Shown one piece after another: positions 69-15,292 of a stretch of 20,000 nucleotides of DNA. The position numbers and the translations under genes are program-made. The first letter of the stretch is position 1, and every line of letters begins with the position of its first letter. The DNA comes from Atractiella rhizophila (lineage: Eukaryota), in assembly GCA_021432655.1 (NCBI GenBank), contig MU271349.1, positions 65,326 through 85,325 on the forward strand. The letters are read 5' to 3'. A model generated the notes under the pieces. That model did not search any database, was not told the DNA's origin, and saw only the letters and a list, made by a program, of their open reading frames with translations.

Positions 69-870
69 TTACTACATTCACCAATAAGGAACCCATCAGC
101 GAGTGCGCCACAGGAAAGCAAGACATAACACGGACCTCTTCTTCCTCATCAGCAGCCTCTCCGCCGCCAGCAGCTGCGCGAGCCCTCTTTCGCTTAACAC
201 GTCCGGCCCTTCCACCTCCATACGGAGAGGTCAAGGCGAAGTCAATGTGCTATTGCGGTATTTGATCAGCGTCAGGGCTGTGACATCGCAAACAACGTAC
301 TTTCTGAGAATCCAGACGGACGACGAAGGAGGGGACGTTGACGATTTGTTTTCCGACACTGCACAGTAACCATTCAACCCAATGCTTGTATGAATGAGCA
401 AGTTGCGCACCGAATGTGCCTCTGCCTGATGAGGACCCTAGCGTGATGAATGCTCTTCGCGAGACCGGACTTGAAGACCTGAGTCTGGAGCCTCCTCTCC
501 ATGAAATCCTCGATTTTGAGGGCAAGCACATAGTCGAGCCTCATCCTATTCTCATCCAACACCCCGATCCTGACCAACCTCCTAATCAACGCATTACCCT
601 CGAAGAGCCTCTTGGGATCCTTGTCCTCCAACTTGAGAAGTTCACGAGCAGCTCGTCGAATCTTGGACAGGATGAGAGAGATACGCCAAATCTCTCGCTT
701 GTTTCGGAGACCGTATTCTCCAGCGAGACGAAGCTCGGAGTCGAGACGGGGAGCCTCGAATGGTCGACGAGGGACCTTGTAGCTGCCGACAGAGAAATTA
801 ATAACATCAGAGTGGACGGGAGGAGCATGATGGCATACGTTTTTGAAGCGTTCCTTGGAGCCTTCGGCAT
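69..870 (-). CDS. RPS9: 40S ribosomal protein S9 (uS4); exons 870-839, 782-411, 358-301, 249-136, 71-69
   Basis: Spliced translation [20 protein letters not shown]...[19 protein letters not shown]...[84 protein letters not shown]...EEE matches the uS4/S9 family; GT-AG introns with consistent phases. The last exon (stop only) is inferred. Confidence 0.97.
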
Positions 871-1040
871 GATACTACTTACGTTGGACGCTTCTTCGTT
901 AAAATGTTCCTCTGACTGACTTGCGTGGCTCTCGTATTTTTCGGAAAATAAACCTGGCCCCCTAGGTTTGGTTTTGTCTGCTCACGACGATTCAGTTCTC
1001 AGGCTAAGTCCCATTTCTCTTCTCTTTCATCCCCTTCAAG
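871..1040. promoter_or_regulatory. Bidirectional promoter between RPS9 and RPL21
   Basis: 170 bp between divergent start codons. The head-to-head RPS9/RPL21 arrangement is known from other fungi, including S. cerevisiae. Contains a short inverted repeat AAACCT...AGGTTT (~950-968). Confidence 0.75.
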
Positions 1041-1785
1041 AGTACGTTCTTATGCTCTTATGGATGTTGAGATGCTGACTGTTTCTCTTTCCAGTGCCCC
1101 ACTCCTTGTTAGTTTCCTTCCTCACTTCAATGCTTCCATCTCTCCACCAAACGATGCGCTGACCACATGCTGATATTATAGCGGTTACCGTGCCCGCACG
1201 CGGGACATGTTCAAGAGGGGATTCAAAGAACATGGACCGATCAAGCTATCGACTTACCTGAAGGTTTACAAGGTTGGAGATATTGTTGACATCAAGGCAA
1301 ATGCTGCTACTCAGCGTGGTATGCCACACAAGTACTACCACGGGTATGTTTCGTTACATCCTATGTTGGTGCTTGAGAACCTGAGAGGCATACGTGTGTG
1401 GATAAAGCCGTACCGGCGTTGTTTACAACGTCACGAAGAGCTCAGTCGGAGTGATCGTCTACAAAGTCGTCGGCAACCGATACCTCGAGAAGCGAGTCAA
1501 CCTCAGGGTTGAGCACGTTAAGCACTCCAAGTGCAGAGACGACTTTTTGCAGCGCGTCAAGTCCAATGCCCAGAAGAAGAAGGAGGCCAAGGAAGCTGGA
1601 AGTGAGTCTTTGTTCAGGCCTTTCCCCCCTTTCTTCATTCATCAAAATGTGAACTGACGGATGGATGATCAGACACTATCGTCCTCAAGCGTCTGCCTCT
1701 CGCACCCAGGGAGGCTCGTACCGTTTCCACAAAATCAAACATCCCAGAAACCCTCGCCCCTGTTGCTTACGACACCACAATCTAA
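1041..1785 (+). CDS. RPL21: 60S ribosomal protein L21 (eL21); exons 1041, 1095-1107, 1182-1343, 1408-1601, 1673-1785
   Basis: Spliced translation [68 protein letters not shown]...[16 protein letters not shown]...[13 protein letters not shown] is typical eL21; the ATG is formed across the first intron (A|TG). Confidence 0.96.
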
Positions 1786-2311: not shown

Positions 2312-4197
2312 ATGCTACGTTCACCCGCCGCCCTTCGTTTGCTTTCACGCACATCTCCCCGCTCAGTGCGAGCATTTTCCAGTCGCTCGCCAATTGTCCG
2401 AAACGCGACTGCAGTCAATGTCAATGTCAACGACACTTTGACCCCTTCGGCCTCCATGCTGGGGTTCTCTGTCCAGGAGCAGGAGAAGGTGGTTGAAAAG
2501 ATGGGACTGCCAAAGGTGGAGGGACGGCCGATATATCTTGACATGCAGGTTCGAACCTCTTCTTAGCTTGATGATGCTTTTTTTGTTTCAAGTTTCATTT
2601 GCAGTCTTGCTAATTAATTGTATTGTGTTGAACAGGCTACAACTCCTATGGACCCCAGAGTCGTCGACAAAATGCTCCCCTTCATGACCACTTACTATGG
2701 GAATCCACATTCTCGCACCCATGCCTACGGTTGGGAGACAGAGGCGGCAGTCGAGGAAGCACGAGCAGTATGTCATCTCCCGGCATAGGCCTATTTCTCA
2801 TCATCTAACCTTCTTTTCCTCGATATTCCAGCATGTTGCTTCAGTCATCGGCGCTGATGCGAAGGATATTGTTTTTACCTCCGGCGCAACTGAGTCGAAC
2901 AACATGTCTATTAAAGGCATTGCGAGGTTTCATAAAGGCAAGAAGAAGCATATAATCACCACGCAGACGGAGCATAAATGCGTTCTCGACTCCTGCAGAG
3001 CGCTTCAAGACGAAGGTTTCGATGTCACGTATCTCCCCGTGTTGCAGAACGGACTGGTGGACCTAAAGGTTCTGGAAGATGCGATTAGGGAGGATACTGT
3101 CTGCGTTTCGGTATGTTGCATTGGTCTTTTTATTCATTCGCTGTAACAAGCGGAGAAGACATCAATCTGATGATGTGGAGCAGATCATGACGGTCAACAA
3201 TGAGATTGGTGTTATCCAGCCGCTGGATCAAATCGGTGAAATTATCAAGAGGCACAAAGGGGTCTACTTCCACACAGATGCAGCTCAAGGTGCGACCTTT
3301 TCGTCCTTCCTCCCAATTGCGACTCTAACAATTTCTTCCAAAGCGGTTGGAAAGATCCCACTTGACGTGAACAAGTCGCAGATCGACCTGATGTCCATTT
3401 CAGGACACAAGCTCTATGGTCCCAAAGGAATAGGAGCCTGCTACGTTCGACGCCGACCCCGCGTTCGATTGGAGCCGATCATTTCTGGAGGTGGACAAGA
3501 GAGGGGGCTGAGGAGTGGAACCGTCCCTGCACCCTTAGTGGTTGGGTTTGGAGAGGCGTGTAGGATCGCCAAGTTGGAGATGGAGAGGGATAGACAGCAT
3601 GTGGAGAGGCTGTCGAAGCGACTTATCGACGGTGTCATGAGTCGCTGTACCCATATTGTGAGGAATGGAGATGTGAATGGGTATCCGGGATGGTACGTAT
3701 TCTTCTCCTTACTCCTTCAACACAGGTACTGATGTACTTCTTGATGCGGATCTAGTGTCAACCTTTCTTTCAATTACATCGAAGGTGAATCCCTCCTCAT
3801 GGCCCTAAAAGACATCGCTCTCTCCTCCGGCTCAGCCTGCACCTCTGCTTCGCTCGAGCCTTCCTACGTCCTCCGCGCTTTAGGGGCTGAAGAAGATGCG
3901 GCGCACTCGTCCATCCGTTTTGGAATCGGGAGATTTACAACGGAACAGGAGATCGACTTTGTTGTCGAGAAACTGGTCAAAGTTGTCGAGAGTGCGTACC
4001 TCCTTTCTGTCTTGTGCGAATGATAGGATGCTGACTGTGCATCTTTGCTGGATTGTAGAGCTCAGGGACCTTTCGCCGCTTTGGGAAATGGTTCAGGAAG
4101 GCATTGACCTCAAGACCATCAATTGGTGAGCTCTCTTCAGTCTTCCGCTAGTTTAGGGGCAAGAGCTAATGAAGGTCATTGCAGGTCGCAACACTGA
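2312..4197 (+). CDS. NFS1: Mitochondrial cysteine desulfurase (class V PLP enzyme); exons 2312-2548, 2636-2767, 2832-3110, 3184-3289, 3344-3692, 3756-3991, 4059-4125, 4185-4197
   Basis: Motifs [58 protein letters not shown] (PLP lysine), SSGSACTS (catalytic Cys) and C-terminal WSQH; Arg/Ser-rich N-terminus resembles a mitochondrial presequence. Confidence 0.97.
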
Positions 4198-4506: not shown

Positions 4507-6079
4507 ATGCCAAGACGCGAAAACACTTCCTCCTCCCGCCATTCGAAGCGGCTTTCTCGGACTCTCCCCCAACACATCGACTCTGTCGTTTCCCTTGCGG
4601 ATTCACTGGCTCTTTTGCAAAATGAAAGTGGCTTGGAGGGCTCTCAGGGGTATAGGGAGGGACATGCGACGATGGAGGATGCCATGAGAGAGTATTGCAG
4701 AGCTGGTTTGAAGACCCACTGGGATATGGAGGAAAAGGCGAAGAGGAAGGTTATGTGGAGTGAGTCCAGGCAATTTTCACCCAGATTATTGCTTTGATGA
4801 AAAGCCACGGAAGGACACGTTACTGATTCATGACGTTGGGGACAGGTGGATTTCTCATTCGCGCCGGCTTCGACATTCTTTGCTCTTCTTTGTACATCTT
4901 CCCCTTTCGGGACATGATCAAAATATCCATTGATACTGGGGATACCGGGAAATGCAATTGTCTAGTAACTTTACTCCAAACATGTGGCTTTAATGCTAAA
5001 TGCAAGGCGGATAGGTTTGGCTTCCGAATAAGAAGAAACTACTTGAGAGGATCGAGAATGGCACCTCAGCTTATGGCCTTGATGGAAAGGGGAAGAGGGG
5101 GATTGTCGTGAGTCTTCACGGCGGTGGATGGACAATGTATATTTCTCTCATGCGTACAGTCTCCGAAACTAATACGAATCGAACGCAGATGTCGACCTCA
5201 CGTAGATTATACTCTTTGTCGCCACATGGCAGACGAGCTCGAAACGGTGGTGATTGCGTTCGTCTCTCTGCTCTCTACTTACCCATCCGCTGAAGAAAGC
5301 CTAGGCCTGACTATCGCAAAGCGCCTCGCTACCCATACCCACACGCAATCTTTCAACTTCATGCTGTACTTCAGTGGCTCTCATCCGGCGCACTTCTCCC
5401 GCACCTTCCAGCTGCTATACGGCCACTAATCACGTCCCAACGCATATCCCTCCTCGGAAACTCGGCAGGTTCCAACCTATGTGCCTCCCTCACCGTTCTG
5501 TCCATCCTCCAACCGCTTCCCTTTGGAGCAAAGATTGTTTCCTGTTCACTCCTTTACCCCGTCCTCAATCTTTCCATCCCTTATGGAGACAAACTATCGA
5601 TGATGGTTGCGAGCAAGGAAGGACTGCCATCATGGATGTCTCTCCTCTTCCTCCGATGCTACGTCCCACCACCTCGTCTCACAACCGATCTCGCACTCTC
5701 TCCTGCTCTCGCTCCCAACGTCGTGCTAGAGAAGTTTCCCCCCACCGTCGTCTGTTCGGCACAGCGGGACTATTTAGCAAAAGAAGCGGACGATTTCTCC
5801 GACCGGTTGAAGGATCTAGGAGTGAAAGTTCGACATAGGAATTTTGAGCAGGTCGGACACGCCTTCGACGCCAAACCGGAGCTGTGGAGTAAGAGGCAGA
5901 GGGAAATCAATAATAAGGCCCGCGTGGAAGCCTGGAAGATGATTTCGGATGTTATGGTCGACGCCCTCGCAGAAGAGAAGGAGGTAGAAGAGGCTAATGA
6001 GGTGATGCTTCATAGAGCGGTTGAGTCCGCGCAAAGGGATACGGATAGTACGAGGAGCAATGACATCTTGAAGAAGTGA
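4507..6079 (+). CDS. Alpha/beta hydrolase, hormone-sensitive lipase/esterase family (Abhydrolase_3); exons ~4507-4759, 4846-4964, 5015-5136, 5189-5257, 5305-6079
   Basis: Spliced translation has HGGGW (oxyanion hole), PDYRKAPRYPYPHA, nucleophile elbow GNSAG (5456-5470), PPTVV..AQRDYL (Asp) and GHAF (His). Start codon and exon 1 are less certain. Confidence 0.88.
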
Positions 6080-8783: not shown

Positions 8784-9143
8784 GTTTTATTTACCACTGA
8801 ATTGCCTAAAGGCGGAAATAGGGCACGAGGCACATAAGACCTTCACAAGCTGGCTTTATGTATGATTGGAAGTTAGTACATGTAGATTAAGGCAGAGGTA
8901 CGCACTTACTGTAAAGGAGAGCAAAGTGCGACCAGGGAACGACTGCCAGCTTGGTGTGAGGACCGCACCGGTACCGTGTGCCTCTAATTGTTCCTCGTGG
9001 ACTTTATTTGCCATCGGGTTCAATCTTGTCGTGATTCCGTCGGCAAACATGTTGCCATAAAATGAGACAACGATTTCCTGGGTCTGAGTATCAACGCTGT
9101 CCCAGGATCACCTCAGCCTAGCCTCAGCAGCTCTCAAGCTGCC

Positions 9144-12100
9144 ATGCCAGGCTTGCCCTCCCCACCTTCCTTCGACGTCAAAGTCCAAGGGTTGACGATC
9201 TCTCCACCGCCAGGGACGCAGAGGATACCGCTGATACCCTTCACTGTTAATCTGCCAGAAAATTGGTTTGGGAAAAAGCGAGTGCAGAGGAAATTGTTGG
9301 ACAATGTTAGTCTTACGTGCAAGAAAGGCGAGGTACTTGCCATGTAAGTTATGCTCTGCCTTCGGCGAATCGGTGTGTTTGCAAGAGGAAAGATGATCGC
9401 GAGCGCTTTTGCTCATTGTCAAACGGAATACTTTGCCTAACATTGTTATTGATTCTCCAAAGAAGCTCTTCCGGGTTACTTAACACTCTAGCGATATAAT
9501 CAGCTGCAAGGGAACGGAAACATCTTGAATCCTATTGTCACAGTAGCTCCAATGGAGATTTCTCTTTTCTGCAGCGCATTATAGCTGCTTTGGCACTGAG
9601 CCTTTCTTAAGCTGTCTGAAGCTCTCAGCGCTGCAGAGAGACTTCTGTCGAGTCGCAAAGACCGCATCGCAGTGGAGGCGGTGTTTCCCTGTTACAAGCA
9701 ACGCTAAATGCACAATTTCGAAGCACCACGGACTCGAGCAGAGATTTCGACGACCTCATGAACTGAAAATAAGGATTTCGGACCTTCCTGTCCAATTCCA
9801 CTGCTAGTAAAGTTGACAATGTTAATATCCATTGGGTACAATTGCTACGGACCTTCCTGTCCAATTCCACTGCTAGTAAAGTTGACAATGTTAATATCCA
9901 TTGGGTACAATTGCTAGTGTTAGTAGTTGCCCTTTAGCTGACAGGAAAATATGTCCTCTCTTCTCAGGAGTTAAGAGTCCCAGAACCGCACTGATAGTCA
10001 TATTCAGCATTGGGGGCTCAGGAAGCGGCAAGAGCACGCTTCTTTCCTCACTCGCCGCTCGTCTGGCCAATCTCGAAATGGATTCCGGCGAGATCAGCTT
10101 TATCCCTCGCTCTTCAGGTCCATCTGTGTCCGGAGGTTTGAGAATTTCGAAAGAGCACAAACATCCACGAGGGATTAGCAAGATCGTGGGATATGTGAAA
10201 CAAGACCCGAGTTTGTTGCCGTATCTGACTGGTGCGCTTCACACCTTTACTTTCCTGAAATCCTGGATCAGTTGACGTGGTTGGCATGGACAGTGAGGGA
10301 AACTTTGGAAACTGCCGCTGCACTCAGATTGCCTTCGGACGCGCCGGCGAGCATTGTCGCTGAGATTGTGCAACAGACTTTGAACGAGCTGGGCCTGGAA
10401 GAACAGGCGGAAACCATTGTTGGAGCGGAAGGTGGACGAGGGTGGGGGAGGAAGGTTTGCTGCTATCCCCTCTTTTACAACTGAGTTCTGCGTGACTAAC
10501 GTGTCAATGTGCAGGGAATTTCAGGCGGCGAACGCAGACGGTGTGTCCTCCTCTCACCATTTAATGGATAACCCGAACCAAATTATGCGCAGATTGAGCA
10601 TTGGTTGTGTCATGGTCACCCGCCCTTCTGTTCTCCTCTTGGACGAACCCACAACAGGGCTGGACGCCTTCTCGTCGTATCAACTCCTCTCCACGTTATC
10701 CCAATTATCCCGTCGAGGGCGTACAATTATTTTGAGTATCCACCAGCCTCGCTCAGAAGCGTTCAAAATCTTCGACCGTCTAGCGGTCCTCACGAAAGGC
10801 TCTCTCGTCTACGCTGGTGCGACAAAAGATGTCATGTCATATTTCCGGAGCGTTGGGCATAAGCCCTTGTTGAAGCAGCAGAACCCTCTTGATTGGGTCA
10901 TCGATCTAAGTAGCGTCGACACGAGGGACGATGACCTCGAAAGAGAGAGCACGGAGAGAGTGGAGAAGCTGAAGGAAGAGTGGAGAAAGAAGGCAGATTA
11001 TTCAAAGGATTCGAACCATGAACCTTCGACGGAAGCGAAAGCTTCCTCGAATCGATCTTCACTGGAGAAGGAGCCGTTAGACGAGATGTCGACTTACGTC
11101 GACCCAGAGAAACGAGTTTCATCTGTTTTAGATGATAAGTACCCACTGGAGGATCCGTCACCGATTGGAGATATCAAGAAAGATCAAAACGATGAGCTTG
11201 AGCGGTTCTCGTCTTTTGGAGAAGGAAGCGAGCTTATCGGCAAGCGTCCATCGTGGTGGCGACAAACTATCGTACTGACGAGACGAGCACTGCTGAACGT
11301 TCTGAGGAATTATGGGCAGACAGCTGGATTCTTCATACAGACCATCATCATGGCTGTTGTAATTGGGGCCGCATTCTACCAATTACCAGAAAATCCAGGT
11401 GGGATTCAATCTATCAAGACGCTGTGCGTCACTGCCTAATAACTGAGAAGGTAACTTATTACATCATTGCTGCACAGGTGCTATTTCGTCAACGTGATGA
11501 ACTATTATCTCCTCCTTATGGTCTACACCTTCGTCCTTTGCTCTGAATTCCGCGTTTTTGATTATGAGCGCGAGGACGGGCTTTATGGAACCCTGCCTTA
11601 CCTGGTAGCTATTAATTTAGCATATCTCCCCATCAATGTGATAGCGTTCGTTTACTCCTTTGATCTTGATAAATGTTAAACTGATTACTAGACCCACGGT
11701 ATACTCAATCATCGTCTACTTCATGACGGGATTGCGAAAAGACGATCTCGCTTACCATTTTTGCTGCTTCATGGCCAACGTACGGAGGTCGCTTCGTTTA
11801 CCAAACGTCAAACTTATCTATATCAACAGCATATCCTCCAACAAATTGCAAGTTTCGGCTATGGTCTCGTTTCTGCGGCGACAAGTCGATCCTTCGCTCG
11901 TGCAAGTTTAGTTGGAAATTGTGAGCAATAAATTTGGCAGATTTGATGGACTAACAACTCGGATAGCCTCTTCAATAGTTCTCCTTCTTACTGCCGGATA
12001 TGTCTTGGTGGATGTCCCGGTTTACATGTAAGAAGCTAATCTCTTCTACTGCCATAAACAAGACTTACCATCGCCCGAAGCAAATGGGCAAGGTGGATCA

Positions 12101-15058
12101 GTCCGTATTATTACGGCTTCCATTGGCTCGCAACATCTCAATTCGAGGATCGACGGTTTGCCTGCAAAGGTATTTGACTTCGTTTACAAGTAGTGACGGG
12201 AGATGAACTACTTTGCAGGGATCACTGGACCTGCGGCCAATCAATGCATAGGGGAAAACGTGCTTATAGGAATGAAAATCAACGGAAGCATTCCCGATTA
12301 CGGTATAGCTTTATCCTTCTACAGGATCCTACTGATGAGAAACGCTAGCATGGCCGTTGGGGATCCTAGCATTCTGTACTCTTTTGTTCACGTCAGCTAA
12401 TTTCCTCATGGTTGCATCTTGTCACTGATTGCTCTGCTTAACGCTGGGCAGGATATCCTTCATCCTTCTTCAGTGGCATCACCCTGGAGGCGTCAAACAT
12501 GCACGAGCGCGATACACGGATGAAGCTGAGTTAAAACGAACAGAAAAAACAAGCTTGCAAGAACTTGAAAGCCAGCGGACGAGGGACGGCATCAAAGTTT
12601 CCGTGGAGCATTTACGGCTTTCAGTCATCCAGAAGGCTTTCGTCCATCCAAAAGAATCGAAGGAAAAAGTTATCCTCGACGAGTGCTTCGGAGAATTCAT
12701 GCCTGGCAAAGTCACTGCCGTCATGGTAAGTATCCAGAATAAAATAATCCAGGATGCTTACTTCAGAACAGGGACCAAGTGGTGCTGGAAAGAGTAGCCT
12801 TCTGCAACTTCTTGCTGGCCAGCTCCAGGAAGGCGCAATATCTAAATGGAAGTGCGAAGGATCGATTAAATTCAATGAACACGCCGCCGATAACCATCGA
12901 AACATCTGTGGTTTCGTTGAACAAGTGCGTTGGTTTCCGAACACTTGGCCAGACTGATCGTTTATCTTTCTAGAGCGATAAACATCTTCTCCCCGCCCTC
13001 ACTGTAAGCAATGATCTCAGACTGGCGATGGTGACCATAGTTTCCCATAGGTGCGAGAAACGTTGCTATATGCTGCAGTATTGAAGCTCCGAAACATGAC
13101 CAAACGACAAAAAGCAGCCAGGGCAGAACAGGTTTTGAGGATGTGAGTTCTCTCTCTGTGTCGCCACCATAAAATCTAACTTTTTATAGGTTGGGCTTGA
13201 AAGAGTGTGCGGATAACTTGGTGGGAGGTGACTTGATCAAAGGTAGATTTGCGTCTGCTTCTCGCGCTCTCGTTGACTGAACTATACAGGCATCAGCGGG
13301 GGCGAAAAAAGGTGTGTCAAGAGCACATCCTCATGAGGAAGACTAAGGTGTCTGCAGGCGCCTGTCTTTAGCGATCCAACTACTCAGCGATCCGCCAGTG
13401 ATAGTAGCGGATGAACCACTGTCTGGTCTAGATTCCTTCATTGCCCGCAACATCATGGAGTGCCTTTCTGCTATCGCACGCTCGGGGCGAACCGTCATCA
13501 TTTCGATACACCAACCTCGTTCGGACATCTAGGATCTCTTCGATTATGTCCTTTTACTCGCCAAGGGTGGCAAGACAGTGTTCTGGGGTCCAAAGGACGA
13601 AGCTCTTCCAACGTTCGCTTCTATCGGTCTGGAATGCCCCAAAGGTAAGCTCATCTTGAGCCAAGAGTTAGTCTGACGATCCATATAGACTACAACCCAG
13701 CCGATTTTCTCATCGACGCCATCAGCATCAACAAGCGTACAAAGGAAGATGAGCATCGTTCATCGAAACGTTTGAGCCAAATGCTCGATGTATGGAGCCA
13801 GCAAATCTCGTTTGCTTCGAAAACGTCTGAACGCCAACCTGCCAACGACGCAGTTATCGCACATGATACGAAATCTGCGCCAATGCGCTATGCGTTGCCT
13901 ACGGTCATCTCTCGAAGCTGGAAGAATATGCGACGGCAACCTGATGTCTTTCCAGTTAGGGCTGTGAACCCTCCGTTCCTCGCTCTTATCTTTTGGTTTT
14001 TCTATCAACGTCTTTCTCTAGGTCCAACCGGATCGCAGAATCGCATCGGCTTGTTCCAGCAAAACAGTGCTCTTCAGTTCGTCGGAATGTTATCATCCAT
14101 GGCAATCTATCCGAACGAAAGGAATTTGTTCCTTTATGAATGGTCCAGTACTTCGCGATACTCGCCAGAGACTTTTCTCCTTAGCTATACAGCTATTGAG
14201 CTCCCCTTTCAAGTCATCGCCTCCCTGCTTTATGCCATAATCTTCATCTATGGAATGGACCTCCAACACGTGAGCCTACTTTTCCCTTTGTTATTGGCGA
14301 AGTTGAAGTTGAGAACACTGCACAGACGCCGCGCATTTTCTTTGAATATTTTACTTCCTGCTGGGCCCTCATATCTGTGGGCGAGAGCATCGGGGTGCGT
14401 ATACGTTTTCTTCCCTGATCTCACTTCTTATTTCTCGAATATCCAGATCGTCTTTTCCACCTTCGTCGAAAATGGCGGTCTTTCGGTCTCTCTCGTTTCT
14501 TCAGGCACGTCCACTCTCTCCTTCATCAGCCAAGCAAAGGTCGTTAATGGTGTGACTCTCGGAATAGCACTGTCAACGATGGCGATAATCTCTGGCATCG
14601 TATCAGCTAACGTGCCCACCTGGTTCCAAGCTATCGCTTGGGTAGCAGTGATCAAGATCAGTTCGCGAATACAGATTATCAACGAGATGATTGGGCTGCG
14701 ATTCAATTGTACCCAGGACCAAATCGCGAATGGACAATGTCTAGCATGTCAGTATTCGATAACCCTCGATTCCTTACTCTCCCACGATCCCTACCTCTCA
14801 CAAGCTCCTGTATTGGAAGACGTGTGCTGATTCCAAGCGTGGAAAAGTGACGGGTGAACAGGTGCTAGATACCCTTTCGATCAAAGATCGAAACACTGGT
14901 AAATTTATCGGGTCAGTTCTCCTCCTTGCCCTTTCCCTTCATCATTGGAAGGAGAATACTGACACTGTGGATGCGTGTGTAGGATCATGATGGCTGTTGT
15001 TGTTGCGTATAGGCTCGCCGCACTGGCGGCCTTGAGAATCAAAGTTCGATACCTCTAA
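9144..15058 (+). CDS. Full-size ABCG transporter, (NBD-TMD)2 topology, yeast YOL075C-like; ~25 exons; contains one in-frame TAG at 13530-13532
   Basis: NBD1: GGSGSGKST, ISGGERRR, LLLDEPTTGLD, SIHQPRSE. NBD2: GPSGAGKSS, ISGGEKRR, IVADEPLSGLD, SIHQPRSD. Two ABC2-type membrane domains; ends LRIKVRYL* (TAA 15056-15058). Both NBDs are canonical, unlike PDR5-type pumps. The YOL075C-like assignment is inferred from architecture. Confidence 0.92.
9779..9916. repeat. Perfect 69-bp tandem direct duplication in intron 1 of the ABCG gene
   Basis: 9779-9847 is identical to 9848-9916 (CGGACCTTCCTGTCC...GGGTACAATTGCTA). Confidence 0.97.
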
Positions 15059-15292
15059 CCGAGGGACGGTTGGGATGGATAGACAATCTACCGTTTTAGG
15101 AATATGAAGTGTAAGCGCACAGCGTGCGCAATCGTCCATAGAAGTGCTTGCTGACGAAGAGGAGAGAAAGTTTCATTGAGACGTAAAATATGGAGCAATG
15201 AGATTGATGAGACGTGAATGCATGAAGGATAGAGGATGAATTAACTGCGAAATAAGCAAAGGTGACCATACAAAAGATGGACGCAAACCAAT

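Follow-up and report, generated by a model that had tools for sequence, protein, structure and literature searches.

Does a single in-frame UAG in an otherwise intact transporter gene of a basidiomycete indicate that the messenger RNA is recoded, or has one copy of the gene simply lost its function? The question is raised by a stretch of 20,000 nucleotides (nt) of the root fungus Atractiella rhizophila (Pucciniomycotina; assembly GCA_021432655.1, contig MU271349.1, positions 65,326 to 85,325; hereafter the window), in which the gene of an ABCG transporter contains a TAG codon within its second nucleotide-binding domain (NBD2). A first-pass annotation, made from the letters alone, had put forward stop-correcting adenosine-to-inosine (A-to-I) editing or readthrough, with a recent nonsense mutation from TGG as a fallback. 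Our analysis favours the fallback: both the sister copy of the gene in the same assembly and most aligned orthologues encode tryptophan at this place. Of two ABCG copies that are syntenic and nearly identical, one has probably suffered a genuine and recent loss of function, TGG having become TAG at codon 955. The feature is real but ordinary: an intact second copy stands behind the nonsense allele, and recoding is neither needed nor indicated.

The transporter gene and its internal stop

The features on which the argument rests are the following:

9144-15058, + strand: full-size ABCG transporter gene with the order NBD, transmembrane domain (TMD), NBD, TMD; 25 exons, 1334 codons, terminal TAA
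13358-13644, + strand: exon 19, with Walker B, D-loop and H-loop of NBD2, the strand after them, and the stop
13530-13532, + strand: in-frame TAG, codon 955 of 1334; apparently TGG with a G>A transition at 13531

For the gene model, contigs of four public runs (X1, X3, X4 and X5) were compared with window positions 9000-15200. The X1 contigs are unspliced DNA. GT..AG joints show the contigs of X3, X4 and X5 to be RNA, regardless of how these runs are labelled; the region of the ABCG gene is thus transcribed and spliced in three runs. Fifteen listed joints, together with pieces of contigs and an enumeration of frame-consistent combinations, resulted in a single model.

In this model the TAG is the sole internal stop in 1334 codons and 25 exons, in agreement with the first-pass description of a real in-frame TAG and some 25 exons free of other lesions. 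The uninterrupted reading frame expected of a full-size ABCG gene is broken at codon 955. The letters at 13521-13550 are ...TCG GAC ATC TAG GAT CTC TTC GAT TAT GTC..., with the frame kept on both sides of the TAG, and exon 19 translates around it as ...SIHQPRSDI*DLFDYVLLLAKGGKTVFWG. At the equivalent place NBD1 reads HQPRSEAF, and the aromatic residue that had been noted there was found again.

The predicted product is a full-size reverse-topology ABCG transporter. Pfam recognized ABC_tran in two stretches and ABC2_membrane in two, all above the curated cut-offs, in both public proteins described below (P0002 and P0019). Walker A, signature, Walker B and H-loop were all found in each NBD of the model translation, in detail GGSGSGKS, GISGGERRR, LLLDEP and SIHQP for NBD1 and GPSGAGKS, GISGGEKRR, IVADEP and SIHQP for NBD2. 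Homologues of 1200-1400 aa were obtained by protein search across Basidiomycota and Saccharomycotina. With the order NBD-TMD-NBD-TMD, about 1300 residues and full NBD motifs, the gene resembles the full-size non-PDR ABCG class of fungi, for which we take yeast YOL075C to be the type; unlike members of this class, the window copy is truncated by the stop ahead of TMD2.

Some details of the exon structure were also observed. Introns measure 44-100 nt, save for intron 1 with 664 nt (9344-10007), which contains a perfect tandem duplication of 69 nt x 2 (9779-9916); the X1 contigs break within this intron, record 1 stopping at 9808 and record 2 beginning at 9887. One intron is of the GC-AG type (14505-14567) and is supported by the length of the spliced X3 contig. 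The signature GISGGERRR of NBD1 is encoded by a micro-exon of 26 nt (10515-10540), which is included in an X3 RNA contig with three synonymous differences in 24 nt.

The second copy and the ancestral codon

When exon 19 was read through with X at the stop and used as a protein query (P0001), it matched a 1316-aa protein of A. rhizophila with 96% identity and also a 1365-aa protein of A. rhizophila, in which the stop falls within a gap of 20 residues. The 1365-aa protein (P0019) is KAH8922576.1 and matches the window translation exactly in every exon block; it is thus the public NCBI model of the window locus itself. The sister copy (P0002) is KAH8921816.1. It shares the accession series of the window locus and lies on a scaffold of 79,324 bases, the window locus being on one of 85,325 bases. 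It reads HQPRSDIWDLFD, with Trp at the position of the stop (HQPRSDIWDLFDSV vs HQPRSDI*DLFDYV in the window), so that the first-pass guess of Trp as the restored residue proved correct: DIWDLFD is the sequence of the sister copy. Two further features define the relation of the copies:

13545-13547, + strand: TAT (Tyr) against Ser in the sister copy, the second amino-acid difference between the two
4507-6076, + strand: alpha/beta-hydrolase gene, a neighbour with two copies in the assembly, marking the duplicated block

The hydrolase on the 85,325-base scaffold, KAH8922573.1 (P0139), is identical to the window in 445/445 residues, and that on the 79,324-base scaffold, KAH8921819.1 (P0133), differs from it in 2/445. 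Hydrolase and transporter are three accession numbers apart on either scaffold, in reversed order. Because the ABCG gene and its neighbour both occur twice with equal accession spacing, a block of at least 10 kb is present twice in the assembly, with about 99% protein identity. A syntenic second copy with the ancestral codon, as expected for a sheltered allele, is thus found in the same assembly (KAH8921816.1/KAH8921819.1 vs KAH8922576.1/KAH8922573.1). The two scaffolds are similar in size, which suggests that the copies are most likely haplotypes of a dikaryotic or diploid isolate that were assembled as separate scaffolds; a recent segmental duplication is less likely.

The ancestral state of codon 955 was deduced from homologous proteins, fragments of less than 400 aa being excluded. 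The NBD2 residue at the stop site among 120 homologues was F in 59, W in 42, Y in 10 and another residue in 8, the one gap being P0019 itself; the equivalent residue of NBD1 was F in 106, Y in 8, L in 4 and W in 2. For an orthologue alignment, which had been proposed as a check of the first-pass idea, 14 of the 120 were chosen, 8 from Pucciniomycotina and 6 from Agaricomycotina. Trp stands at the stop site in 12 of these 14, including all 8 Pucciniomycotina, and TGG is therefore taken as ancestral, the TAG being apparently the result of one G>A transition at 13531. Searches further afield added no close relative: near-identical short protein fragments, either stopping at SDI or continuing past it, were sought, with a best match of 63% identity and none from A. 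rhizophila; the exact pattern around codon 955 had 0 matches in metagenome contigs; and a protein-guided scan of metagenome contigs, with 80 loci kept, gave 47% identity at best. A genome-wide reassignment of TAG was rejected, as the sister copy spells this residue TGG. As for stop usage, TAG had been named at first pass as the normal stop of two other genes here; the terminal codon is TAA for the ABCG gene and TGA for the hydrolase gene, and among eight other stop-to-stop frames, counted as frames and not as gene models, one ends in TAG.

Tyr at 13545-13547 is found in none of the 14 aligned orthologues, which have N, Q, H or D there. The codons point to a single-base A/C difference between the copies at 13546; this position, 15 nt from 13531, can serve as a phasing marker within one read.

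The sequence differences also bear on the age of the stop. Between 9132 and 12211, 40 differences of the window from X1/X3 were listed, 1 upstream, 21 intronic and 18 exonic. The exonic ones comprise 13 synonymous and 5 nonsynonymous bases, the latter in 4 codons, which is the pattern of purifying selection. In the 379 codons that follow the stop, the window and the sister protein differ by one residue (S/Y); a G/S difference at residue 1198 of P0002 lies within an intron retained by both public models. Had this part drifted since the split of the copies, about 10 replacements might be expected in the 379 codons, which is a rough estimate from a silent divergence near 2-3% rather than a computed test. 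One difference thus stands against about ten. The simpler reading is that the stop arose long after the copies split; the other is that the region is still under selection. Hypermutation of a duplicate resembling repeat-induced point mutation was also considered and was rejected: the changes between window and X1 include 42 transversions, and the 81 transitions are of all four kinds, with no excess of C>T or G>A.

The events can then be pictured as follows. A G>A transition at 13531 would have turned the Trp codon 955 of one copy into a stop. Translation of this copy would end after the H-loop of NBD2 with loss of TMD2, and since six introns lie downstream of the stop its mRNA is expected to be a target of nonsense-mediated decay. 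The other copy, which encodes the ancestral Trp, would supply the transporter, and the null copy would be sheltered and too young to have gathered further lesions. With its single transition, intact sister, lack of further decay and duplicated neighbour gene, the locus is no different in kind from a heterozygous or duplicate-copy nonsense allele, i.e. a young unitary pseudogene copy.

Two observations on the other copies should be added. At 11755-11779 the window reads HFCCFMAN and the sister HFFAASWPN (P0002 residues 521-527), an out-of-frame block of seven residues that requires a T-run longer by 2 bases and an A-run longer by 1 base than in the window. The orthologues fit the window version and the contigs of X1, X3 and X5 show no gap there, suggesting that the "intact" sister copy may carry a lesion or an assembly error of its own at the homologue of this place. 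X1 agrees with P0002 at codons 84 and 339-343, but its codon 260 and its sequence at 11755-11779 have the window state; because its agreement alternates in this way, X1 appears to be a mosaic or a third haplotype.

Editing, readthrough, splicing and consensus error

Two features of the window are relevant to the rival explanations:

13523-13551, + strand: predicted weak stem with CUAG bulge and UCUUC loop (minimum free energy structure)
13519-13578, + strand: GT..AG interval of 60 nt treated as an intron by the NCBI model, likely an annotation artefact

Restorative A-to-I editing of the Sordariomycete type would change UAG to UIG (Trp) in some stage and thereby yield a full-length protein from this copy. 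In ascomycetes the edited A lies preferentially in a hairpin loop, preceded by U (-1) and with A or G at both +1 and +3 (PMC11156358), and the edited premature stops of Fusarium graminearum arose mainly from TGG, their commonest origin, and are retained across species (PMC10776026). The premature stop codon sites of F. graminearum and Neurospora (e.g. PUK1, AMD1; PMC10776026, PMC11156358) are matched by the window stop in several respects, namely a TAG derived from TGG, an intact remainder of the gene, a U before the A, and purines both at +1 and at +3. The context CUAGGA (G at +1, A at +3) thus fits the preference of F. graminearum (PMC11156358), but U at -1 holds for any UAG by definition and the fit is trivial for any UAG with a purine at +3. 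Unlike the window stop, those sites are fixed and conserved across species, lie mostly in hairpin loops and belong to hosts with demonstrated sexual-stage editing; in the window, the host is a basidiomycete, the stem around the stop is unremarkable and holds it in a bulge, and the sister copy has Trp in place of the stop. The hairpin of the first-pass annotation was in fact reproduced as the minimum free energy fold, in which GGACAU (13523-28) pairs with AUGUCC (13546-51) and GAUC with GAUU, leaving CUAG as a bulge. It is, however, no better than chance: at -8.4 kcal/mol its z is -1.0 and 32 of 200 shuffles fold at least as well, the corresponding figures for a context of 120 nt being -0.13 and 88 of 200. 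The A is exposed in this 4-nt bulge rather than in a stable hairpin loop, the loop being UCUUC. With regard to the host, A-to-I mRNA editing was sought but not found in Agaricomycetes, and nearly all sites reported from five Polyporales and from Coprinopsis were traced by Min et al. 2021 to matching DNA polymorphism, near-identical genomic copies or strain differences (PMC9723688; restated in PMC11156358). A paper of 2026 claims A-to-I sites in Microbotryum, also of the Pucciniomycotina, but these have C and not U at -1 (PMC13608869); and descriptions of the known editing machinery, with its cofactor AME1, are confined to filamentous ascomycetes (PMC11156358). We regard it as very improbable that this stop is edited, and equally so the wider reading that Atractiella performs ascomycete-like restorative editing, with this UAG changed to UIG (Trp) in some stage. 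With a sister copy that encodes Trp, an unexceptional hairpin and an A placed in a bulge instead of a loop, the original proposal of stop-correcting editing or readthrough found no support.

Some functional protein could also be made by readthrough of the UAG or by a splice that skips it, as in the NCBI model. The earlier statement that no intron can remove the stop did not hold, since the TAG lies within five in-frame GT..AG intervals of 40-110 nt, one of which, 13519-13578, is used by NCBI. This interval is 60 nt long and in frame, its donor GTTCGG resembles the real donors GTTCGT and GTACGG, and one of the 13 RNA joints beyond those listed is unaccounted for. The splice-site consensus was dropped as an argument against it, as the genuine donors of this gene follow it loosely and include two similar to GTTCGG. 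What speaks against the splice is that the RNA contigs of two runs cross 13519-13578 unspliced (X4 record 14, 13356-13642; X5 record 20, 13453-13642) and that it would delete 20 residues kept in 14/14 aligned orthologues, and for these two reasons the "intron" is most likely an annotation artefact that avoids the stop. Leaky stop contexts are known to have C at +4 or the form CAR-YYA. The stop here is followed by GAU CUC (UAG GAU CUC), unlike such contexts, and it is without a counterpart in the sister copy, so that neither a leaky context nor a conserved stop, the two marks of programmed readthrough, is found; a stop that one copy lacks is no conserved recoding signal. Readthrough or stop-skipping is, in our view, about as improbable as editing of the stop. 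A different kind of explanation is an error of the assembly or consensus, in which case there would be no stop, the DNA of the isolate having TGG on both scaffolds. In its favour, the TAG is without confirmation at the level of reads, two unusual changes to A, at 13531 and 13546, are separated by 15 nt, neither state being seen in the sister or in the aligned orthologues, and the seven-residue out-of-frame block of the sister protein, with its two homopolymer-length differences, may hint at imperfect base quality. Substitution errors are, however, rare in a consensus of normal depth, the frames of the window scaffold are otherwise clean (25 ABCG exons and 445/445 hydrolase residues), and homopolymer indels are another class of error than a G>A substitution. 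We consider such an error unlikely.

The reading that we prefer, a young nonsense allele, has points against it as well. A gene that is maintained and recoded would equally show no other lesions. The TAG rests on the assembly, base 13531 not having been seen in reads or contigs; the X1 contig over the site, the only one of X1 listed there, has 17 differences from the window in 1327 places and neither confirms nor denies the TAG. By the tallies of change types, which give no positions, each of the four runs could have A>G and A>C changes beyond 12211, and assembled contigs cannot reveal a partial edit. The allelic status of the two scaffolds is likely rather than proven, and nothing on the nuclear or karyotic state of A. 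rhizophila was found in print, its genome data being termed unpublished in PMC13347111.

Consequences for annotation and for editing screens

The public model KAH8922576.1 skips from 13517/18 to 13579/81, by which RSDI*DLFDYVLLLAKGGKTV, i.e. 20 conserved codons and the stop, is lost. It is also without the micro-exon 10515-10540 and reads AANADGVSSSHHLMDNPNQIM from intron sequence instead. Because the stop is hidden in an invented intron and the signature micro-exon is missed, this model is unfit to serve as a reference. Other departures were observed in the public models. Both P0002 and P0019 retain the intron 14505-14567 in frame, which gives about 21 extra residues found in no aligned orthologue; P0019 retains the intron 14748-14847, which is spliced out in RNA; and P0002 removes 11125-11244, which is retained in an RNA contig (X3 record 10). 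Elsewhere in the window, three open frames were assigned by eye: 374-874 (- strand) is ribosomal protein S9-like, 1174-1512 (+ strand) ribosomal protein L21e-like and 2688-3732 (+ strand) a cysteine desulfurase (NFS1-like).

If the stop were corrected by editing after all, no earlier case of premature-stop-correcting mRNA editing would have been shown in a basidiomycete, and the TAG allele would here still be polymorphic against TGG. On the preferred reading of a young nonsense allele, the significance of the locus is that of a trap for RNA-editing screens, of the artefact class that undid earlier claims of editing in Basidiomycota. With two copies about 1-3% apart it resembles the loci behind the false calls of Min et al. 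2021 (PMC9723688), although a false call at the window locus is a prediction and those were observed cases. RNA from the TGG copy, when mapped onto the TAG copy, would mimic a restorative UAG-to-UGG edit (A>G at 13531) unless it is phased with 13546, and it is this neighbouring variant that permits a clean phased test.

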